A stretch of 33,433 bases of DNA from an uncultured Oscillospiraceae bacterium (GCA_964523685.1 CAZGAM010000001.1:5774-39206); one strand, 5' to 3'; shown: positions 3,164 through 33,433, counted from the stretch's first letter. Numbers and translations: made by a program. The notes: generated from the letters alone by a model not told the origin.

Positions 3164-4824
3164 CGAAGAGAATCTTTCATTCTTTCTGTCTGGTAGCATT
3201 TACGGTGTTTTTGGCATCGATCGTGCTGATTATGGGAGTACTGTATGAGTATTTCTCCCGCATTGAGCAGACGCAGCTGCGCATGCAGACGCAATTGGCC
3301 GCCCAGGGAGTGGAACTGGGCGGAAGAGAATATTTCCATGGACTGGATGTCCGGGATTACCGGATTACCTGGATCGGCGGGCAGGGAGATGTCCTTTACG
3401 ACACCGAAGCAGACAGCCGTGTAATGGAAAACCATCTGGAGCGGGCAGAAGTGCGGCAAGCTCTGGAAGAAGGTTACGGAGAAAGTCAACGCTATTCTTC
3501 TACCTTGATGGCCAGGTTCCTGTATGCTGCGCAGAGGCTGGGAGATGGAACCGTGTTGCGACTGTCCATCGCGCAGAACACAGTGTTGACCATGCTGCTT
3601 GGAATGGGTCAGGGGCTGGCGGTGGTAATCGCTATGGCTCTGCTCCTGTCAGTATTATTAGCAGGACGGCTTAGTAAACGCATCGTTCAACCCCTGAACA
3701 ACCTGGACCTTGACCATCCTATGGAAAATAAAGGATATGAGGAGATTTTTCCTTTGCTCTCCCGGATGGAGATGCAGCAGAAGCAGCTTCGGGAGCAGAA
3801 AACGCAGATCAGCCAGCGCAGGGATGAACTGAATGCGGTGACAGACAATATGAAGGAGGGAATCATCCTTCTGAATGCGCAGGGGAAAATTGTAAGTATT
3901 AACAAGGCGGCTGCCAGCCTGCTGAAAGTTCAGCTGCCGGCGGAGGGGAAAGATCTTCCCGCAGTTAGTCAGAATATGGATGTACAGGATGTCTTGACGC
4001 GCGCCGGACAGGGGGAAACCGTAGAAAAATATTTCTCCCTGGACAAGGGAACCTATCGGATGAGTGCCAGTCCTGTGCTCAGCAGAGGGGAACCAACCGG
4101 TGTGGCTGTACTGCTTCTGGATGAGACGGAGAAAGCCCAGGCAGAGGCCATGCGCCGGGAGTTTACAGCCAATGTATCGCATGAGCTAAAAACACCGATG
4201 CACGTCATCTCAGGCTATGCAGAACTGATGCAAAACGGCATGGTCCGGGAAGAGGACATTCGTACTTTTGCCGGCAAAATCTACGACGAGACCCAATTAA
4301 TGGGTAAACTTCTGGACGATATTATCAGCCTCTCTCATCTGGATGAGGGAGCCGGGGATATGTCCTTTGAAACAGTAGATTTGTATGCGGTTGTATGCGG
4401 GGTTCTGCGGGATCTCCAAACGGAGGCAGAAAAGGCCGAGGTGACACTGCAGGTCAGAGGCCGCTCTGTCAGGATGCAGGCTATCCCATCTCTGGTGCAC
4501 TCTATCGTATTCAATCTGTGTGAAAACGGGATAAAATATAATCATGCCGGAGGGCATGTCCAGGTTGTGGCAGAGGAAGAAGAAGGGGTGGCAGTTCTTG
4601 TGGTGCAGGATGACGGCATAGGTATTTCTGCTGAACAGCAGGAGCATATTTTTGAACGATTCTACCGAGGAGAGAAAAGTCATAGCAAACAGGTGCCAGG
4701 TACAGGACTGGGCCTGTCCATCGTCAAGCATGCTGCTATGATCCATAATGCGGCCGTGGAATTGCGCAGTACTCCCGGGGAAGGGACTGAAATTGTGGTT
4801 CGATTCCCCCTTCAAAGGACCTGA
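3160..4824 (+). CDS. Sensor histidine kinase (PhoR-like: 2 TM, PAS, HisKA, HATPase_c)
   Basis: 554 aa. It has an N-terminal TM helix and a second TM around LGMGQGLAVVIAMALLLSVLLAG. PAS-like region NAVTDNMKEGIILLNAQGKIVSINKAA. H-box FTANVSHELKTP. N/G boxes NLCENGIKYN, DDGIGIS and GTGLGLSIVK. Confidence 0.92.
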   Translation: MTKRIFHSFCLVAFTVFLASIVLIMGVLYEYFSRIEQTQLRMQTQLAAQGVELGGREYFHGLDVRDYRITWIGGQGDVLYDTEADSRVMENHLERAEVRQALEEGYGESQRYSSTLMARFLYAAQRLGDGTVLRLSIAQNTVLTMLLGMGQGLAVVIAMALLLSVLLAGRLSKRIVQPLNNLDLDHPMENKGYEEIFPLLSRMEMQQKQLREQKTQISQRRDELNAVTDNMKEGIILLNAQGKIVSINKAAASLLKVQLPAEGKDLPAVSQNMDVQDVLTRAGQGETVEKYFSLDKGTYRMSASPVLSRGEPTGVAVLLLDETEKAQAEAMRREFTANVSHELKTPMHVISGYAELMQNGMVREEDIRTFAGKIYDETQLMGKLLDDIISLSHLDEGAGDMSFETVDLYAVVCGVLRDLQTEAEKAEVTLQVRGRSVRMQAIPSLVHSIVFNLCENGIKYNHAGGHVQVVAEEEEGVAVLVVQDDGIGISAEQQEHIFERFYRGEKSHSKQVPGTGLGLSIVKHAAMIHNAAVELRSTPGEGTEIVVRFPLQRT

Positions 4825-22742: not shown

Positions 22743-25136
22743 TTACGCAATACCGCTGCTCAAGCCAAGGATATACTGTCTGATCGCGCCGGCACCGGCG
22801 TATTTCTCCACATTTCCGTTCTCGTCAATAAGTACCAGGGTGGGGGCCTGTTTTACACCATAGAGCGCTGCCAGGTCCGCATTTTCCTCAGCCATGAGTT
22901 TTTCATAGGCGAAGCCGGCCTTATCCATGGCAGAACAGGCGATCCGGCAGTTGGGACAGGTAGGCGTGGCGAAAAGAAGGGAGCGTGGGATCTGGGGAAT
23001 CTTTTCCGCGTTCTCGGGGGCGTTTTCGTTTGATACGGGAGCCAGAGGTCCCTGATGCTTCAGAACAGAGTTGGCAACCACATATTCCCGGCGTTCCTTA
23101 TACTCCTGCGTCTTCCCGGCGTTCCAGTTTTGAACAGGGCGGTAGTAGCCGGTGATGCGGCTGTATACTTCCGTCTTCTCGCCGCACACCGGGCAAATGA
23201 ACTGCTCTCCCGTCAGATAGCCGTGATTCTTGCAGACAGAATACGTCGGAGACAAGGTGTAATAGGGCAGACGGTAGTTTTCGGCGATCTTGCGCACCAG
23301 GTTGGCGGCAGCTTCCCAGTCTGGCAGCTTTTCCCCGAGAAAAGCGTGGAACACCGTGCCGGAGGTATAACGGGTCTGGAGATCGTCCTGGATATCCAGC
23401 GCATCGAAGATGTCTTCCGTATAGCCCACAGGCAGATGGGAACTGTTGGTGTAATAGGGGGTGCCACCCGGCTCGGCTGCGGTAATGATATCCGGATAAA
23501 TTTCCACATCATGTTTGGCCAAGCGATACGCGGTAGATTCGGCAGGGGTGGCCTCCAGGTTGTAGAGATCGCCATATTGCTCCTGGTAGTCCTTCAGACG
23601 CTCCCGCATATGATCCAACACCTGTTTGGTGAACTGCTGGCACTTGGGACTGGTCATATCGGCCCGGATCCACTTGGCGTTGAGTCCCGCCTCGTTCATG
23701 CCCACCAGGCCAATGGTGGAGAAGTGATTGTCAAAACTTCCCAGATAATGCTTCGTGTAGGGGTACAGTCCTGCGTCCAGAAGTTTGGTGATCACATCCC
23801 GTTTGATTTTCAGGGAGCGTGCGGCCAGATCCATGAGCTTGTCCAGACGGACATAGAAATCTTTTTCATCCGTGGCAAGATACGCCAGACGGGGCATATT
23901 CAGGGTTACAACACCCACCGAGCCGGTGCTCTCCCCGGAGCCGAAGAAACCACCAGATTTTCTGCGCAGTTCCCGCAGATCCAGGCGGAGGCGGCAGCAC
24001 ATGGAGCGCACATCAGACGGTTCCATATCGGAGTTGATATAATTGGAGAAATAGGGAGTACCGTATTTGGCGGTCATCTCAAAGAGCATTTTATTATTTT
24101 CTGTGGCGGACCAGTCAAAGTCCTTGGTGATGGAATAAGTGGGGATGGGATACTGGAAACCGCGGCCGTTGGCATCGCCGCTGATCATAATATCAATGAA
24201 GGCCTTGTTGACGATGTCCATCTCCGGCTTGCAGTCGCCATAGGTGAAATCCATCTCCCTGCCGCCCACAATCGCGGGCAGATCCTTCAGATCATCCGGG
24301 ACCGTCCAGTCCAGGGTGATATTGGAGAACGGTGCCTGTGTACCCCAGCGGGATGGAGTATTCACGCCGAAGACGAAGGACTGGATGCACTGTTTGACCT
24401 CTTTATAGCTTAAATTGTCCACCTTGACAAAGGGAGCCAGATAGGTGTCAAAAGAGGAGAAAGCCTGGGCACCGGCCCACTCGTTCTGCATGATGCCCAG
24501 GAAATTGACCATCTGGTTGCAGAGCGTGGAGAGATGGCTTGCCGGGGCAGAATTGATTTTGCCTGGGATGCCCAGCCCCTCCTGGATGAGCTGCTTCAGA
24601 CTCCAGCCGGCACAATATCCGGTGAGCATGGACAAATCGTGCAAATGCAGATCGCAGTTGCGGTGGGCGTCGGCAATGGCCTGATCGTAAATTTCACTGA
24701 GCCAGTAGTTGGCTGTGACGGCGCCGGAATTGGAGAGGATCAAGCCTCCCACAGAGTAGGTGACCGTGGAATTCTCCTTTACCCGCCAGTCCTGCACATT
24801 CAAATATTTGTCTACCGTCTCCTTATAATCCAAAAAAGTGGATTTCACATTCCGCAGATTTTCTCTCTGCTTGCGGTAGAGAATATAGGCCTTGGCGACG
24901 GTCTCATACCCGCCGCGGGAAAGGACCGCTTCTACACTGTCCTGTATATCTTCGACAGCCACAAGGCTGTTTCGGATCTTAGCCTGAAAGTCTGCCGTAA
25001 CTTTCAGCGCCAGAAAATCAATGACACTCTCATTGTAATCGGTTTGCGTGGCCTCAAAGGCCTTCTTGATGGCTCCAGCGATTTTACTGATATCAAAGTC
25101 GACGATGGTTCCGTCGCGCTTTGTTACCTGATACAT
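22743..25136 (-). CDS. nrdD: Anaerobic ribonucleoside-triphosphate reductase (class III) with a C-terminal thioredoxin-fold extension
   Basis: 797 aa. The N-terminus is an ATP-cone (MYQVTKRDGTIVDFDISKIAGAIKKAF...). The NrdD core follows, with a Zn-ribbon (CKNHGY...CPVCG) and the glycyl-radical motif SRITGYYRPVQNWNAGK. A further roughly 112 aa end in a Trx fold (LLFATPTCPNCRIA...KQAPTLVLI). Confidence 0.93.
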   Translation of the reverse strand: MYQVTKRDGTIVDFDISKIAGAIKKAFEATQTDYNESVIDFLALKVTADFQAKIRNSLVAVEDIQDSVEAVLSRGGYETVAKAYILYRKQRENLRNVKSTFLDYKETVDKYLNVQDWRVKENSTVTYSVGGLILSNSGAVTANYWLSEIYDQAIADAHRNCDLHLHDLSMLTGYCAGWSLKQLIQEGLGIPGKINSAPASHLSTLCNQMVNFLGIMQNEWAGAQAFSSFDTYLAPFVKVDNLSYKEVKQCIQSFVFGVNTPSRWGTQAPFSNITLDWTVPDDLKDLPAIVGGREMDFTYGDCKPEMDIVNKAFIDIMISGDANGRGFQYPIPTYSITKDFDWSATENNKMLFEMTAKYGTPYFSNYINSDMEPSDVRSMCCRLRLDLRELRRKSGGFFGSGESTGSVGVVTLNMPRLAYLATDEKDFYVRLDKLMDLAARSLKIKRDVITKLLDAGLYPYTKHYLGSFDNHFSTIGLVGMNEAGLNAKWIRADMTSPKCQQFTKQVLDHMRERLKDYQEQYGDLYNLEATPAESTAYRLAKHDVEIYPDIITAAEPGGTPYYTNSSHLPVGYTEDIFDALDIQDDLQTRYTSGTVFHAFLGEKLPDWEAAANLVRKIAENYRLPYYTLSPTYSVCKNHGYLTGEQFICPVCGEKTEVYSRITGYYRPVQNWNAGKTQEYKERREYVVANSVLKHQGPLAPVSNENAPENAEKIPQIPRSLLFATPTCPNCRIACSAMDKAGFAYEKLMAEENADLAALYGVKQAPTLVLIDENGNVEKYAGAGAIRQYILGLSSGIA

Positions 25137-26209: not shown

Positions 26210-26238
26210 TTGAAAATTGGGCGCTTTCCCATTACAAT
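26210..26238 (+). promoter_or_regulatory. Putative gcv operon promoter
   Basis: TTGAAA (26210-26215), a 17-nt spacer, then TACAAT (26233-26238). The leader to gcvT is about 150 nt. Confidence 0.5.
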
Positions 26239-26393
26239 CAAAGCAACCCCTTGGATGGCGGGATCCGGGAGCAGAAAACCAGATCTCCTGGGAGGGAGCA
26301 GAGAGACAAGACCTGCGGCTTCGGCAGCTTGCTGCATTTTGGGAAACCGTACCTGACAGATGGCGCAGGGTCTTGCGAAGAGGAGGAGTGAGC

Positions 26394-27488
26394 ATGGAGA
26401 GAAAAACACCCCTTTATGATACCCATGGCAGATATGGGGGGAAAATCGTGGAATTTGGCGGTTACCTGCTGCCAGTCCAGTACGGCACCGGCGTGATTGC
26501 GGAGCATATGGCTGTGCGCACTGCCTGCGGTCTGTTTGATGTCTCCCATATGGGAGAGATAACCTGTAGGGGAAAGGATGCCCTCAGGAACCTGAATCAT
26601 CTGCTGACCAACGATTACACAAATCTGGCAGACGGCCGGGCGCGTTATAGTCCCATGTGCAATGAACAGGGCGGTGTGGTGGATGACCTGATCACCTATA
26701 AAGTTCGGGACGATACCTATTTTATTGTAGTCAATGCGGCGAACCGGGAGAAGGATTTTGCATGGATGAAAGAACATGCCTTGGGGGATGTGGTTTTTAC
26801 GGATCTCTCCGATCAGGTGGCCCAGATCGCCCTGCAGGGACCGAAGGCGCAGGAAATTCTGGAAAAACTGGTTTCTGGGGAGCAGATTCCCCGCAAATAT
26901 TACAGCGCTGTCTTCCAGGGACGGATAGGGGAGATGGAGTGTGTCCTCTCCCGAACCGGATACACCGGCGAGGATGGGTTTGAGATCTATCTCGCCGCGG
27001 AAAATGCAGAAAAAATGTGGGATCTACTCATGGAAACCGGACGGGATCAGGGACTGATCTGCTGCGGGCTTGGAGCCCGGGATACCCTGCGCCTGGAGGC
27101 GGGCATGCCTCTGTACGGACATGAGATGAACGAGCAGATCACGCCTTTGGAGGCCGGACTGGGTGCCTTTGTTAAGATGGGAAAAGAAGAATTTTTGGGA
27201 AAAAAGGCTCTGGCGCAGAGAGGAGAGCCGACCCGAAAGAGAGTGGGCCTGCGGGCTACCGGAAGGGGAATCCTGCGGGAAGGCCTGGATGTAGTTGCCG
27301 GAGATCGGAAAGTGGGGATTACCACCTCAGGAACCTTTGCCCCCTATCTGAAGCAGTCTGTAGCCATGGCGCTTCTGGATGCGGCTACTACAAAGCCGGG
27401 AACAGCAGTTGAGGTAGATGTCCGGGGGAGAAAAGTGGCGGCAGAGGTTGTTCCGCTCCCCTTTTACCACAAAGAGAAAAAAACATAA
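26394..27488 (+). CDS. gcvT: Glycine cleavage system aminomethyltransferase (T protein)
   Basis: The start is trimmed to ATG 26394 (AGGAGGAG SD). The sequence reads MERKTPLYDTHGRYGGKIVEFGGYLLPVQYGTGVIAEHMAVRTACGLFDVSHMGEI... Confidence 0.93.
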   Translation: MERKTPLYDTHGRYGGKIVEFGGYLLPVQYGTGVIAEHMAVRTACGLFDVSHMGEITCRGKDALRNLNHLLTNDYTNLADGRARYSPMCNEQGGVVDDLITYKVRDDTYFIVVNAANREKDFAWMKEHALGDVVFTDLSDQVAQIALQGPKAQEILEKLVSGEQIPRKYYSAVFQGRIGEMECVLSRTGYTGEDGFEIYLAAENAEKMWDLLMETGRDQGLICCGLGARDTLRLEAGMPLYGHEMNEQITPLEAGLGAFVKMGKEEFLGKKALAQRGEPTRKRVGLRATGRGILREGLDVVAGDRKVGITTSGTFAPYLKQSVAMALLDAATTKPGTAVEVDVRGRKVAAEVVPLPFYHKEKKT

Positions 27489-27503
27489 AGGAGAGGTAGT
27501 ATT

Positions 27504-27884
27504 ATGAACCAGCCTGCAGATTTGCTCTATTCCAAGACCCATGAGTGGGTGAAAGAGCTCGGGGACGGGACGGCATGGATCGGATTAACCGATTTCGCGC
27601 AGGATTCTCTGGGAGATATTGTCTTTGTGAATCTGCCTGAGGTGGGAGATGCGGTGACAGCCGGGGAGCCCTTCGCAGATGTGGAATCGGTAAAGGCTGT
27701 TTCCGATGTGTATTCACCTGTTTCGGGTGTGGTAGCGCAAGTCAATGAAGCCCTTCTTGATGCGCCGGAGAAGATGAATGAAGATCCATACGGCGCATGG
27801 CTGATCAAAGTAGAGAATATTACGGAAAGGGAAGAACTTCTGGAGGCGGACGACTACAGCAGCTTCTGCGAGAGCGAGGAATAA
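27504..27884 (+). CDS. gcvH: Glycine cleavage system H protein (lipoyl carrier)
   Basis: 126 aa. It contains YSKTHEWV and the lipoyl-lysine motif [18 protein letters not shown]. Confidence 0.93.
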
Positions 27885-27909
27885 GTCAGAACATCTGGGA
27901 GGAAAGAGG

Positions 27910-29235
27910 ATGGGATCCTATTTGTCCAATACGCCGGAAGAGCAGGCGCGTATGCTCCGGGAAATTGGCTTTGACAGCTTTGATGCCCTGTTTGATCATA
28001 TTCCGGAACAGGTAAAATGCGGCGGCCTGCATCTTCCGGAAGGCCTTTCAGAGATGGAGGCATTTCAACAAATAGAGAATATGGCGGATAAAAATATCCG
28101 ATTCCGCCATATTTTTCGGGGAGCAGGGGCTTATAACCATTACATCCCGGCGATTGTGAGAAGTGTAGCTTCCAAAGAGGAATTTGTGACGGCTTATACG
28201 CCCTATCAGGCGGAAATCAGCCAGGGGATTCTTCAGTCCATCTTTGAGTATCAGACCATGATCTGCGAGCTGACCGGGATGGACGGAGCCAACGCATCTG
28301 TCTATGACGGGGGAACAGCGGCGGCAGAGGCTGCGGCTATGTGCCGGGACCGCAAAAGGCAGACAGTCTGTGTCTCTGCGGCGGTTCACCCCCAGGTGAT
28401 TCAGATCCTTCAAACATACTGTTATGGAAGCGGAACAGAGGTTGTTCTGATCCCGGAAAAAGACGGCATAACCGATAGGGAAGCGCTCCGGCGCAGTCTG
28501 GATGATCACAGTGCCTGTTTTTTGATGCAGTATCCGAATTACTATGGAAACATAGAACCTGCGGATAAACTGGGAGAAATTACCCACGAGGCGGGAGCCA
28601 AATTGATCATGAGCTGCAATCCCATAGCACTGGCTGTTCTGAAAACACCGGGGGAGTGCAAGGCGGATATCGCAGTAGGAGATGGCCAGCCGCTTGGCCT
28701 GGGGCTCTCTTTTGGAGGCCCGTATTTGGGATATATGGCGGCCAGCGAGAAAATGGTGCGAAAACTGCCGGGAAGAATTGTCGGACAGACGGTAGACAGG
28801 GATGGAGCCAGAGCGTATGTGCTGACATTGCAGGCGAGGGAGCAACATATACGAAGGGAGAAGGCCAGCAGCAATATCTGCTCCAATCAGGCCCTTTGTG
28901 CGTTGACAGCGGCTGTGTATCTGGCGGCTATGGGAGAAGAGGGACTGAAACAGGCAGCATCTCTTTGTATTTCCAAAGCACACTACCTGCAGCAGAAGCT
29001 GGCAGAAGCAGGGCTGCCTCTGAAATATAAGCAGCCATTTTTTCATGAATTTGTCACAATATCGGAAAAAAAGTCGGATGAGTATCTCGATGCTCTGCAG
29101 AGAAAAGGATTTCTGGGCGGCCTGCCGATCAGCGACCATGAGATTCTCTGGTGCGCTACAGAGAAAAACAGCCGGGAAGAGATGGACACTTTGGCGTCCA
29201 TTGTCATGGAGGTAAGCCATGAAATGTATTTTTGA
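27910..29235 (+). CDS. gcvPA: Glycine dehydrogenase (aminomethyl-transferring) subunit 1
   Basis: 441 aa. It contains YLSNTPEEQARMLREIG, FRGAGAYNHYIPA and TAYTPYQAEISQG. Confidence 0.92.
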   Translation: MGSYLSNTPEEQARMLREIGFDSFDALFDHIPEQVKCGGLHLPEGLSEMEAFQQIENMADKNIRFRHIFRGAGAYNHYIPAIVRSVASKEEFVTAYTPYQAEISQGILQSIFEYQTMICELTGMDGANASVYDGGTAAAEAAAMCRDRKRQTVCVSAAVHPQVIQILQTYCYGSGTEVVLIPEKDGITDREALRRSLDDHSACFLMQYPNYYGNIEPADKLGEITHEAGAKLIMSCNPIALAVLKTPGECKADIAVGDGQPLGLGLSFGGPYLGYMAASEKMVRKLPGRIVGQTVDRDGARAYVLTLQAREQHIRREKASSNICSNQALCALTAAVYLAAMGEEGLKQAASLCISKAHYLQQKLAEAGLPLKYKQPFFHEFVTISEKKSDEYLDALQRKGFLGGLPISDHEILWCATEKNSREEMDTLASIVMEVSHEMYF

Positions 29236-30658
29236 ACGGGGCACACCCGGTCAGCGCTGTACGGTGCTGCCTGACAGCGATGTTCCGGTGGTCACACTGC
29301 CTGTGCCTGAGCGGAAGATCCCTCTTCGGCTGCCCCATGTGTCAGAGAATGAGATCAGCCGTCATTATACAAGTCTTGCTCAGCAGGTGCATGGGGTAAA
29401 CAACGGATTTTATCCCTTGGGCTCCTGCACCATGAAATACAATCCAAAAGTCAACGAAGCAGCGGCGTCGCTTCCCGGATTTACGGCTATTCACCCCCTT
29501 CAGCCGGAGGACACGGTTCAGGGGTGTATGGAAGTCCTGGATTTGGCAAAGAAGATGCTGCTGGAAATTACCGGTATGGATGATATGACGCTGCTGCCGG
29601 CGGCGGGAGCCCACGGAGAGTTTACAGGACTGCTGATGATCAAAGCCTTTCATGACAGCAGAGGGGACATAAAGCGTACGAAAATCCTGGTTCCGGATTC
29701 TGCCCATGGAACGAATCCCGCCAGTGCCGCTATGGCTGGATTTGAAGTGGTCAATATCCCGTCGGGGGAAGATGGATGTGTGGATCTGGAAAAACTGCAG
29801 CAGGCAGTGGGAGAGGACACAGCAGGCTTGATGCTTACCAATCCCAATACCGTGGGACTGTTTGAAAAAAACATCCTGACGATTACCTCCATTGTCCATG
29901 ATGCGGGGGGATTGACATATTATGATGGAGCAAACCTCAATGCGATTATGGGGATTGTGAGACCCGGGGATATGGGGTTTGATGTGATGCACATCAATTT
30001 GCATAAGACTTTCTCCACGCCCCACGGAGGGGGCGGGCCGGGGAGCGGGCCTGTTGCCTGCAAAGCTTTTCTTCAGCCGTTTCTGCCGGGGATGCTGGTG
30101 AAGAAGAAAGAGAGTGGGTACACCTTCGAGGCACCGGAAAAATCGGTTGGCAGAGTGAAAATGTTTTACGGGAACTTCCTGGTGGTTGTGAAAGCCCTGA
30201 CATATCTTCTGATGCTTGGAAAAGAGGGCGTCCGGGAAGCCTCCTGCAATGCGGTTCTGAATGCAAACTATATGAAGCAGAAACTGCAGGACATCTATCC
30301 CATGGCTTATCCGGAAACCTGTATGCATGAGTTTGTCATGAGCCTGGAACAGCTGAAGAAGGAAAAACAGGTTACGGCTACGGATGTGGCAAAGGCGCTG
30401 TTGGACTATGGCATCCATCCGCCAACTATGTATTTCCCCCTGATTGTGCATGAGGCGCTGATGGTCGAACCCACGGAGACGGAAAGCAGAGAGACGCTGG
30501 ATGAAGCAATCAAGGCATTTCGTCAGATCTATGACCGGGCACAGGAAAATGCAGAAAGCCTTCATGCGGCACCGCTGCATACCTGCGTCCGAAGGCCGGA
30601 CGAGGTGCAGGCTGCCCGAAAACCAATCTTGCGGTATTCTTTTTCAGAATCCTCATAA
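29219..30658 (+). CDS. gcvPB: Glycine dehydrogenase (aminomethyl-transferring) subunit 2
   Basis: 479 aa. It contains IFERGTPGQRCTVLP, LGSCTMKYNPK and the PLP-lysine context NLHKTFSTPHGGGGPG. It overlaps gcvPA by 17 nt. Confidence 0.92.
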   Translation: MKCIFERGTPGQRCTVLPDSDVPVVTLPVPERKIPLRLPHVSENEISRHYTSLAQQVHGVNNGFYPLGSCTMKYNPKVNEAAASLPGFTAIHPLQPEDTVQGCMEVLDLAKKMLLEITGMDDMTLLPAAGAHGEFTGLLMIKAFHDSRGDIKRTKILVPDSAHGTNPASAAMAGFEVVNIPSGEDGCVDLEKLQQAVGEDTAGLMLTNPNTVGLFEKNILTITSIVHDAGGLTYYDGANLNAIMGIVRPGDMGFDVMHINLHKTFSTPHGGGGPGSGPVACKAFLQPFLPGMLVKKKESGYTFEAPEKSVGRVKMFYGNFLVVVKALTYLLMLGKEGVREASCNAVLNANYMKQKLQDIYPMAYPETCMHEFVMSLEQLKKEKQVTATDVAKALLDYGIHPPTMYFPLIVHEALMVEPTETESRETLDEAIKAFRQIYDRAQENAESLHAAPLHTCVRRPDEVQAARKPILRYSFSESS

Positions 30659-30992: not shown

Positions 30993-31445
30993 TTATTCCT
31001 GCGGAGTTTCTTCCTTTATCTTGGAATACTCTTCTTCAATATAGTTTTCCAGCTCCGTCAAGGCACCGATGATGTCTTCCGCCGCCAGGTCAGCAGCGGT
31101 CAGCAGAGTATGAATCTTGACAGCACGATCTACCAGCGTTGACTCAACTGTGCGGCCGAATACCGACTTCACAGGAACATCATCTCCATCGCGGTAAAAG
31201 GATACTTCATCGGGAATTCCGTTTCCATCATTATCGACCAGGTAAAAATTGAATTCACCATTTCCAGTCAGATCCACAGCAATCGCATTGACATCTCCGC
31301 TCTTGTTCAGATCCAGCAATCCAATGTCTGGGCTCTTGTCACCGTCCAGATCCAGGAGAATCTCGCGCCGGCCCGACCGAACAAGCAGCGGGCTCAGTTC
31401 CTCGTCCTTTTTTATCGCGCTTTTCAATTGTCTCAAAGTTCCCAT
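30993..31445 (-). CDS. Small acidic hypothetical protein with tandem 13-residue Dx[DN]xxG (calcium-loop-like) repeats
   Basis: The start is trimmed to ATG 31445 (AAGGAG 8 nt upstream), because the ORF-track start lies inside the -10 box. The 150-aa protein contains LLDLDGDKSPDIG / LLDLNKSGDVNAI / AVDLTGNGEFNFY / LVDNDGNGIPDEV, then a degenerate SFYRDGDDVPVKS and an acidic helical tail. There is no signal peptide. Confidence 0.7.
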   Translation of the reverse strand: MGTLRQLKSAIKKDEELSPLLVRSGRREILLDLDGDKSPDIGLLDLNKSGDVNAIAVDLTGNGEFNFYLVDNDGNGIPDEVSFYRDGDDVPVKSVFGRTVESTLVDRAVKIHTLLTAADLAAEDIIGALTELENYIEEEYSKIKEETPQE

Positions 31446-31525
31446 CTTGTTGCTCCTTGCTTTTTTATTTCTATGAAGCTGACATAAATGACTTATTAGC
31501 TCAGCTTTAATAACTCTGTAAATCA

Positions 31526-31554
31526 ATTATAAACAATGCAATTCCTTTTGTCAA
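31526..31554 (-). promoter_or_regulatory. Consensus sigma-A promoter of the repeat protein gene
   Basis: On the minus strand: TTGACA (31549-31554), exactly 17 nt, then TATAAT (31526-31531). Confidence 0.6.
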
Positions 31555-32028: not shown

Positions 32029-32058
32029 TTAGACAAAATCCTTCCGGATAGATATAAT
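32029..32058 (+). promoter_or_regulatory. Putative promoter of the Rpn-family gene
   Basis: TTAGAC (32029-32034), an 18-nt spacer, then TATAAT (32053-32058). The ORF-track ATG at 32057 lies inside the -10 box. Confidence 0.4.
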
Positions 32059-32143
32059 GCATAACAGAGGCAAAAATGTCAGTCAGAAGAACTGGCTGAA
32101 GCACTATTTTGCTCTCACACTTCTTTTAACGGGAGGAGTACTT

Positions 32144-33154
32144 ATGGGTCTTGCAGATACTGCAGCAAAGGAGTATATCTCTGAGCCGGATGTATTCGCA
32201 GATGTCTTCAATTATGGTATTGGAAGAGAAAAACAGTTGATAGAGCCAGATCAACTGAAAGAACTGGATACTACGAGTATATCCATTCCTTACGAAAAGG
32301 GGAAAAAGAATAAATTACAGCTATATCCAATCCAAAGAGAACAGGATGTCCTTAAGGTAGCAGCTTTAAAAACAGATGGCAAGTTGCAATATTTAATTCT
32401 CAGCTCTGAAATTCAGATGAATGTGCACTATGCGATGCCTGTTCGCGTTATGGAAAACCATTCCTTTTGTTACAGCAATCAAGTGCAGCACTTTAAGGCA
32501 AAGCATCGCAAAGAGAACGACCTCAAGGATTCAGCGGAGTTTCTCTCAGGAATGACGAAAACAGACAGGATATATCCAATGATTACCGCGGTAGTGAATT
32601 TAGGCAAAAAACCATGGGAAAGACCTGTTCATTTGACCGATATGATGGACGAATATCCTGATGATTTCAAGCCTTACCTGAATAATTATAGTTTCATTTT
32701 GATTGATCCTATGAGGATGGACGAGAAGGACTTTGAACTGTTTCGCAGCAGCTTGGGGAAAGTTCTCCATTTGGTGAAGTACCAAAACGACGGAAAGATG
32801 TTGAAGAACCTGTTAGACAGCGATAAAGCCTATCAGGAGATGCCTATAAATGCAGCCATAGCTATGAAAGCCATAATCCATATCGATATTCCAATTGATT
32901 CGAAAGAGGGGAAAAAGATGGGTACAGTGAATGTTTGTAAAGCTGTTCAGGATTTGATGGACGATGCCCGTAAAGAGGAGAAACGCCGTGCCGATCAAGA
33001 GAAGCTCCGTGCCGATCAGGCAACCCAGCGTGCTGATCAGGCTGAGAAAAATATGCGTGAGTCAGCAAGGAAATTGTTGAATATGGGCTTAACGGCGGAG
33101 CAGGTGGCAGTGGTCCTGAATTTCTCGGTCGATGAAGTTCGGAGTCTAGGTTAA
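32144..33154 (+). CDS. Rpn family recombination-promoting nuclease / putative transposase (PD-(D/E)XK, YhgA-like)
   Basis: The start is trimmed to ATG 32144 (GGGAGGAG SD). MGLADTAAKEYISEPDVFADVFNYGIG... and the core LQYLILSSEIQMNVHYAMPVRVMEN fit the hhhhE-x-Q...M-x-x-R pattern of this family. The C-terminal tail is charged and coiled-coil-like. Confidence 0.8.
   Translation: MGLADTAAKEYISEPDVFADVFNYGIGREKQLIEPDQLKELDTTSISIPYEKGKKNKLQLYPIQREQDVLKVAALKTDGKLQYLILSSEIQMNVHYAMPVRVMENHSFCYSNQVQHFKAKHRKENDLKDSAEFLSGMTKTDRIYPMITAVVNLGKKPWERPVHLTDMMDEYPDDFKPYLNNYSFILIDPMRMDEKDFELFRSSLGKVLHLVKYQNDGKMLKNLLDSDKAYQEMPINAAIAMKAIIHIDIPIDSKEGKKMGTVNVCKAVQDLMDDARKEEKRRADQEKLRADQATQRADQAEKNMRESARKLLNMGLTAEQVAVVLNFSVDEVRSLG
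32918..33154 (+). CDS. Possible in-frame internal translation product (78-aa C-terminal tail, RpnS-like)
   Basis: The in-frame ATG at 32918 is preceded by GAGGGG with 6-nt spacing. The product would be MGTVNVCKAVQDLMDDARKEEKRRADQEKLRADQATQRADQAEKNMRESARKLLNMGLTAEQVAVVLNFSVDEVRSLG. Support comes only from the SD context and the E. coli Rpn precedent. Confidence 0.35.
   Translation: MGTVNVCKAVQDLMDDARKEEKRRADQEKLRADQATQRADQAEKNMRESARKLLNMGLTAEQVAVVLNFSVDEVRSLG
32987..33049 (+). repeat. Three tandem 21-nt (heptad) repeats inside the Rpn tail
   Basis: CGTGCCGATCAAGAGAAGCTC / CGTGCCGATCAGGCAACCCAG / CGTGCTGATCAGGCTGAGAAA encode RADQEKL / RADQATQ / RADQAEK. Confidence 0.9.
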
Positions 33155-33282
33155 CGCCAATATGGGAAGGCAGAATCGAGGATTATATCACAAAAAGAAT
33201 CTAGGTTTGATTTGTGCGTAGATGCACGGTAACGCAGCGATTCTGTCTAGCGAATGTTGACTCGGAAAAAGAGGCCACAACT

Positions 33283-33433
33283 ATGCAAACAGGGAAAGCA
33301 TGTAAAGCTGTTCAGGATTTGATGGACGATGCCCGTAAAGAGGAGAAACGCCGTGCCGATCAGGCAACCCAGCGTGCCGATCAGGCTGAGAAAAATATGC
33401 GTGAGTCAGCAAGGAAATTGTTGAATATGGGCT
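33283..33433 (+). CDS. Free-standing paralog of the Rpn C-terminal tail (runs off the right window edge)
   Basis: ATG 33283 has AAGAGG 8 nt upstream. The product is MQTGKA, then CKAVQDLMDDARKEEKRRADQATQRADQAEKNMRESARKLLNMG... It carries two heptads instead of three. Confidence 0.5.
   Translation, partial: MQTGKACKAVQDLMDDARKEEKRRADQATQRADQAEKNMRESARKLLNMG
33301..33433 (+). repeat. Direct duplication of 32936-33089
   Basis: The two copies are nucleotide-identical apart from one C/T difference (CGTGCT versus CGTGCC) and a 21-nt in-frame indel that removes one heptad unit. The duplication starts exactly at the TGT (Cys) codon. Confidence 0.95.

Follow-up and report, generated by a model that had tools for sequence, protein, structure and literature searches.

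In Escherichia coli, RpnS, the small protein that corresponds to the C-terminal tail of an Rpn protein, is also encoded by separate genes downstream of rpn, as in rpnE-ypaA (where ypaA is rpnESs) and rpnC-rpnCSs (Zhong et al. 2023, PNAS, PMC10400941, "Varied Expression of Small Proteins"). According to that study, RpnESs protein is detected in E. coli, the downstream rpnSs copies each group with the tail of their own upstream gene and can be lost through deletion or fusion, the repeat number of Rpn tails varies among strains, and a one-repeat difference abolishes neutralization in the case of RpnC. A commentary by Koonin also mentions free-standing rpnS genes (PMC10400984), and a search for RpnS literature beyond these two papers found none. 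Here, we describe what is likely a locus of this type in an uncultured Oscillospiraceae bacterium, at positions 32144 to 33433 of a 33,433-nucleotide (nt) stretch of DNA (GCA_964523685.1 CAZGAM010000001.1:5774-39206), which we refer to as the window. In this locus, a gene encoding a 336-amino acid (aa) Rpn-like protein holds a candidate in-frame internal start for its tail and is followed, on the same strand, by an open reading frame (ORF2) that repeats part of that tail.

We checked the precedent in E. coli K-12 directly and found that ypaA starts 12 nt past the rpnE stop codon with AAGGAGAGATTAATG, identical to the internal Shine–Dalgarno (SD) sequence and ATG, and that ypaA and its rpnE parent tail differ by one 12-nt (4-aa) repeat. 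ORF2 shows features of an rpnSs gene, being a small same-strand ORF downstream of rpn, with a start homologous to the internal start and with its own upstream tail as its nearest relative. We consider it likely that the window carries an rpnL/rpnS gene with an intragenic antitoxin and a downstream free-standing rpnSs copy, laid out as in E. coli rpnE-ypaA (Table 1). A first-pass annotation of this DNA, made from the sequence alone, knew of no description of such an arrangement. This does not hold, as downstream rpnSs genes were reported in PMC10400941 and the same anatomy is present in K-12 and in two relatives (L008 and L013, see below). The window locus is a new divergent example of a described layout, not a new kind of system.

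Table 1. Features of the rpn locus and its surroundings (positions counted from the first nucleotide of the window)
Feature	Position	Strand	Remarks
rpnL-type coding sequence (CDS), 336 aa	32144-33154	+	N-terminal PD-(D/E)XK-like domain (~residues 1-250) and helical tail
Candidate intragenic rpnS, 78-aa product	32906-33154	+	SD GAGGGG at 32906-32911; ATG 32918 (Met259), 6 nt apart, in frame
Three 21-nt (7-aa, RADQxxx) tandem units	32978-33040	+	Long first helix of tail; ORF2 has two
ORF2, rpnSs-like free-standing tail copy	33283-33433	+	50 codons within the window; 71 aa if continuing like copy 1
Diverged 5′ part of duplicated unit	33257-33300	+	Homologous to 32895-32935; holds AAAGAGG and ATG 33283
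Spacer part without detectable Rpn coding similarity	33155-33256	+	blastx E>0.5
Terminal 55 nt	33379-33433	.	Identical to 33035-33089; window stops exactly 55 nt past the last intercopy mismatch (33378)
Sigma-70-like promoter candidate, TAGACA-17-TATAAT	32030-32058	+	11/12 consensus match; upstream of rpn gene
177-aa ORF, DxDGD/NGxxD calcium-binding-like repeats	30993-31526	-	No Pfam match
Perfect TTGACA-17-TATAAT promoter match	31526-31554	-	Directly upstream of 177-aa ORF
gcvT-gcvH-gcvPA-gcvPB glycine-cleavage operon	26217-30658	+	
Anaerobic ribonucleotide reductase NrdD	22743-25136	-	

The relationship between ORF2 and its parent tail is the first line of evidence for this layout. In an exact comparison, the block at 33301-33433 is the same as 32936-33089 apart from a single substitution and an in-frame indel of 21 nt. 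The substitution (C at 33378, T at 33022) falls on a third codon position and leaves Ala unchanged (GCC/GCT), while the indel amounts to one tandem-repeat unit lost in ORF2 and has at least 12 equivalent placements. ATG 33283 lies beyond a 128-nt spacer that follows the rpn stop codon and is preceded by the SD-like site AAAGAGG at 33268-33274. So far, this agrees with the first-pass annotation, which had noted the position of this start, the near-identity of the copies, and the exit of the second ORF from the window. It had further supposed, however, that the duplication boundary falls exactly at a codon and that the copy gained a fresh SD and ATG, and here the comparison gives a different picture. 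In blastn, the alignment continues upstream of the identical block for 44 nt (33257-33300 versus 32895-32935), with 28/41 columns identical and one 3-nt gap, and both AAAGAGG (7/7) and ATG (3/3) stand in the same register in the two copies. When this upstream homology was put to an anchored-alignment test, the observed score was reached by 3 of 5,000 shuffles and by 2 of 5,000 random 60-mers from the window. Because the homology continues upstream with SD and ATG in register, the internal SD and ATG were part of the duplicated unit. Mismatches are distributed very unevenly, with 13/41 in the 5′ segment versus 1/133 in the identical block (Fisher p=1.5e-8). At the level of sequence, these findings support the view that ORF2 is a genuine paralog of the RpnS part of the upstream gene. 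An origin of ORF2 from an entire paralog that has since decayed was rejected because the spacer at 33155-33256 has no blastx similarity to the family and contains an in-frame TAA at 33229.

The second line of evidence is the internal start itself. The parent gene has the boundaries given in the first-pass annotation; its stop codon is at 33152-33154, and an SD, GGGAGGAG, lies at 32131-32138. An upstream ATG at 32057 was rejected as the start codon, since homologs begin with MG(L/x)xDT and the strong SD belongs to 32144. The promoter candidate further upstream is a consensus match alone, the number of such sites in the region being no higher than in shuffles. Within the gene, the in-frame ATG 32918 and its GAGGGG are where they had been annotated. 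We scored anti-SD pairing for each in-frame ATG, GTG, and TTG in ten genes of the clade. In the window gene, no in-frame NTG codon has a stronger SD than ATG 32918 (ΔG -8.1). Across the clade, the tail-head start, which occupies the same aligned place, ranks first by SD strength in nine of the ten genes and second in the remaining one. The tails of the relatives open with a conserved (N/D)-M-C-(K/E)-A motif, the Met codon of which is preceded by a GGAGG-like sequence and is replaced by GTG in three loci (L007, L009, and L015). The window gene has Val (GTT) at this conserved Met and would use an ATG five codons upstream, within a small insertion. Taken together, these comparisons are good comparative evidence, at the level of sequence, for an SD-backed internal initiation site that is conserved in the clade.

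Downstream of this candidate start, the first helix of the tail contains variable short repeats, with a unit of 7 aa here and of 4 aa as described for Rpn. Tandem Repeats Finder reports a period of 21 nt at 32978-33018, and a third, more diverged unit extends to 33040. The heptads of copy 1 read RADQEKL-RADQATQ-RADQAEK and ORF2 has two such heptads, while the tails of the relatives show EGxx tetrad repeats.

We next considered the identity of the 336-aa protein, in which the first-pass annotation saw Rpn/YhgA-like hallmarks, and for which it proposed a search with Rpn/Transposase_31-type hidden Markov models (HMMs). The window protein does not itself give a family-HMM match above cutoff (PF04754 Transposase_31, TIGR01784; COG5464 family). 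The Rpn family model TIGR01784 matches its tail only (residues 276-334, E=1.1e-4, 22 bits versus a cutoff of 52). The assignment comes instead through homologs and profiles. There are 123 database homologs of the window protein, with E values down to 3e-68, most of which have PF04754, and this model is matched by 64 of the 71 homologs that were aligned. Six columns are invariant in the 71-sequence alignment (D68, E89, Q91, M98, P99, and W158), and D68, E89, and Q91, which form a D ... E-x-Q pattern of the PD-(D/E)XK type, are present in the window protein. When the clade profile was aligned with E. coli RpnE using hhalign (E=7.9e-5 over residues 1-155, with a probability of only 61% and 18% identity), the motifs D-x-V-x-K, Y-x-D-V-L, I-E-(H/N)-Q, and M-x-x-R-x-M-x-Y were paired, and D68/E89/Q91 fell on the YSDVL and IEHQ motifs of RpnE. 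For the tail, a profile of 22 sequences found PDB entry 7TH0_A (Recombination-promoting nuclease RpnA, small-protein crystal) as its best natural match (E=4.6e-5). The AlphaFold2 (AF2) model of the window protein, with a predicted local distance difference test (pLDDT) score of 89, closes with a helix of 50 residues and two short ones after it (6-55, 60-67, and 71-77 in tail numbering), and this predicted tail resembles RpnA-S, which has a long first helix and two short ones (PMC10400941). These findings indirectly support placing the window gene in a divergent clade of the Rpn/YhgA-like family, and we are confident that the locus is of the Rpn L/S type.

Several observations nevertheless weigh against this view of the protein or of its activity. 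A Pfam scan of the 336-aa protein gave no match, and its closest homolog is only 38-39% identical. Foldseek searches of the PDB with the whole model and with the tail gave no significant match and did not recover 7TH0. The best E value for the full model was 0.15, with weak matches that include the PD-(D/E)XK nucleases HamA, Card1, MspJI, and BamHI, and the tail model matched generic helix-turn-helix (HTH) domains only. Similarly, a PDB sequence search with the full-length profile returned nothing at E≤1. The window protein departs from three positions that are invariant in the other 70 homologs (G29E, R67Q, and Y105N), of which R67Q adjoins the catalytic D68, and D106H is a further difference from the homologs. 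These four changes make the protein an outlier of its clade, and its activity may be altered, attenuated, or impaired. E. coli RpnE carries the annotation "inactive," which we take to be a parallel for such an impairment.

Relatives of the window protein offered a way to see how common the layout is, and the survey of homologous loci that had been proposed for this purpose did find tail duplications. In locus L008, the rpn stop codon is followed after 38 nt by a complete copy of 75 aa, matching at 247/270 positions and one tetrad shorter, with homology beginning ~30 nt upstream of the internal ATG. In locus L013 (1-1224), which is a short scaffold, three tail copies stand in tandem in units of ~360 nt, with QQGx repeats numbering ~14 in the first and ~5 in the second; the third is frame-disrupted. 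P0002, the closest relative of the window protein, has a tail identical to the middle copy. In all four cases examined (window, L008, L013, and E. coli rpnE/ypaA), the copy differs from its parent in repeat number. In addition, L009 has at 3235-3345, 1.6 kb upstream of an rpn homolog, a stretch resembling the tail (51% identity across 39 aa, in an ORF of only 26 aa) that looks like duplication debris.

Free-standing tails are also found among database proteins. A tail-profile search of 1.84 billion representative proteins gave 24,655 matches, and among the best 150 of these, 26 are ≤100 aa long and start exactly at the conserved Met, a count that is an upper bound because at least one of them (L014) is a full-gene fragment on a short contig. 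Free-standing DUF4351 (PF14261) and HTH_Rpn_C (PF27070) proteins are likewise short and consist of the Rpn C-terminal tail alone, like ORF2, but neither the window tail nor ORF2 matches either model at E≤1. Many other database proteins, of 140-170 aa, are made of two fused Rpn-type tails (P0122, P0128, P0144, P0153, P0164, and P0196 among them), and very long matches such as P0139 reach up to 1557 aa, with the profile matched 7-13 times.

By analogy with E. coli, we propose the following mechanism. The full 336-aa protein would consist of a PD-(D/E)XK nuclease and, at its C terminus, a three-helix tail, and its toxicity is presumed from its E. coli counterparts. Initiation at the SD-backed ATG 32918 would yield the 78-aa tail alone, the long first helix of which would pair with the full-length protein's tail, thereby blocking that protein. 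ORF2 would have arisen by local tandem duplication of a segment starting ~20-25 nt upstream of the internal ATG. In the simplest reading, this duplication would be older than the near-identity of the copies suggests, with ORF2 kept near-identical from codon 7 on by recent gene conversion and its 5′ end left to diverge. Co-transcription of ORF2 with rpn is probable because the 128-nt spacer contains no terminator and no promoter match, and ORF2 would then be translated as its E. coli counterpart is. A structured RNA or terminator within the spacer was rejected, in view of the absence of a terminator match at 33155-33256 and an RNA fold that is not unusual (z=-0.63).

What ORF2 would do is less clear-cut than its origin. 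We lean slightly toward its being an intact, expressed gene. It is doubtful, though, that it neutralizes the window RpnL, since the copies differ by one repeat unit and a difference of this kind abolishes neutralization in E. coli RpnC, which counts against the layout working as proposed. For the same reason, ORF2 may pair poorly with the window RpnL. The first-pass annotation had suggested an intragenic antitoxin together with an additional copy acting in trans. Of this suggestion, the conserved internal start and the true tail copy stand, whereas a trans antitoxin for this particular toxin is not a safe default because the repeat counts differ. ORF2 could be an antitoxin, whether spare or alternative, or a donor for recombination through which helix length changes, or it could have no role at all.

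The last of these options corresponds to the alternative that survives best, although we find it unlikely, namely that ORF2 is nonfunctional debris of local Rpn-locus duplications, a by-product too recent to have decayed, with no part in nuclease regulation. Debris does occur in such loci, as seen in the frame-disrupted third copy of L013 and the 26-aa fragment of L009, and E. coli ypaA is annotated as a pseudogene by NCBI, but RpnESs protein has been detected in E. coli and the L008 copy is complete to its stop codon. The window offers arguments of both kinds. Weighing against a functional ORF2 are its SD, which is weaker than the internal one (ΔG -5.8 versus -8.1), its running off the window end so that its own end lies beyond, and the rarity of the layout, a downstream tail copy being present in only 1 of the 10 informative homolog loci and absent from the other nine. 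On the other hand, AAAGAGG (7/7) and ATG (3/3) are intact and in register although the 44 nt around them are at ~68% identity. Such intact signals amid diverged sequence point to a long retention of the translation signals of ORF2. Moreover, the reading frame is kept by the indel, and the single substitution within the 133 nt is synonymous.

It is also possible, but improbable in our view, that the downstream copy serves chiefly as a donor for recombination instead of functioning as an antitoxin, being a cassette of different repeat number that would replace the rpnL/rpnS tail by gene conversion or fusion and so switch its pairing specificity. The sharp mosaic of mismatches (1/133 versus 13/41, p=1.5e-8) is the footprint expected of gene conversion, and copy and parent differ in repeat number in 4/4 cases. 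Yet a donor needs neither the SD nor the ATG that ORF2 has retained, switching itself is not directly evidenced, and the donor and antitoxin roles are not mutually exclusive. An equally speculative extension is that the tail copy is a standing recombination cassette, the pair forming a switching system that alters the length of the pairing helix (in heptad steps here) and resets toxin-antitoxin specificity. If true, such cassette switching would perhaps answer phage countermeasures.

That the second copy is an assembly artifact, either a misjoin or a strain variant of the same tail that was collapsed during metagenome assembly, is very improbable. In its favor, the window ends exactly 55 nt past the last mismatch, as is typical when a k=55 graph breaks at a repeat; the sample could also contain a two-unit allele, since Rpn tail repeat number varies by strain (PMC10400941); and no independent contig of the locus was recovered (an exact 45-nt tail-sequence scan of JGI metagenome contigs gave 0 matches). 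Against it, the 146 unique nt at 33155-33300, including the diverged SD/ATG homolog, are not derivable from copy 1 or its allele, and the same layout recurs in two independent assemblies (L008 and L013) as well as in E. coli K-12, the genome of which is finished. The window end is probably a k=55 de Bruijn assembly break at a repeat, due, we infer, to the duplication itself. A scan of genome contigs gave relatives of 30-45% identity only and no same-species genome, and a protein search with the 71-aa reconstruction of ORF2 gave no scoring candidate but also missed the window protein itself, so that it is uninformative.

The rpn locus differs in base composition from the rest of the window. The G+C (GC) content of the rpn locus, from ~31,350 to the window end, is 42% versus 53% for the rest of the window, and it is 38-41% in the part of rpn encoding the N-terminal domain and in the region upstream. 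This fall from ~53% to ~42% suggests that the rpn locus was acquired horizontally. The locus adjoins the glycine-cleavage operon and does not lie in an obvious defense island; the features mapped further upstream are given in Table 1. As a side observation, the neighbors of rpn homologs elsewhere (L015 3998-5680, L007 2268-3210, and L008 9272-9785) include a NERD-helicase gene, an LHH toxin gene paired with one for SUKH immunity, and integrases together with a YoeB/RelB pair. Such neighborhoods are of the conflict-system type, unlike the metabolic context of the window.

These findings extend the rpnL/rpnS-plus-rpnSs layout, characterized only in E. coli, to what appears to be a very divergent Clostridia-type clade, across which the candidate SD-backed internal start is conserved. 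The use of a heptad instead of a tetrad as the variable unit is an added case and a small variation, while the consistent difference in repeat number between copy and parent in four independent loci offers a handle on the question, raised by the 2023 paper, of what the free-standing copies are for. The window also illustrates how short-read assemblies can break at such duplications, if the k=55 reading is correct.

Among known systems, one close counterpart of the window locus is the Clostridia/Lachnospiraceae Rpn clade (for example, P0008 in L008 and P0002 in L011/L013), with which it shares the domain order, the invariant D, E-x-Q, MP, and W, and the SD-backed tail start, and in which L008 and L013 also have downstream tail copies of different repeat number. 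It differs from this clade by the Val at the conserved Met with a start 5 codons upstream, by heptads in place of EGxx tetrads, and by the unique G29E/R67Q/Y105N. From the E. coli systems it is separated by its host, a Clostridia-type gut bacterium, by a very distant N-terminal domain (18% identity to RpnE in hhalign, at 61% probability), by a spacer of 128 nt versus 12 nt in K-12 rpnE-ypaA, by a repeat unit of 7 aa (21 nt, RADQxxx) versus 4 aa (12 nt), and by an ORF2 end that lies beyond the window. The pattern of divergence is also reversed, the window copy being diverged at its 5′ end and 99% identical elsewhere, whereas the K-12 copy is identical at its 5′ end and diverged at its 3′ end. 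With rpnE-ypaA and rpnC-rpnCSs, it nevertheless has in common a full-length rpn gene that contains an SD-backed, in-frame start for the tail, and with rpnE-ypaA, a same-strand tail gene just downstream, with SD and ATG homologous to the internal ones, that is nearest to its own upstream tail and one repeat unit apart from its parent.

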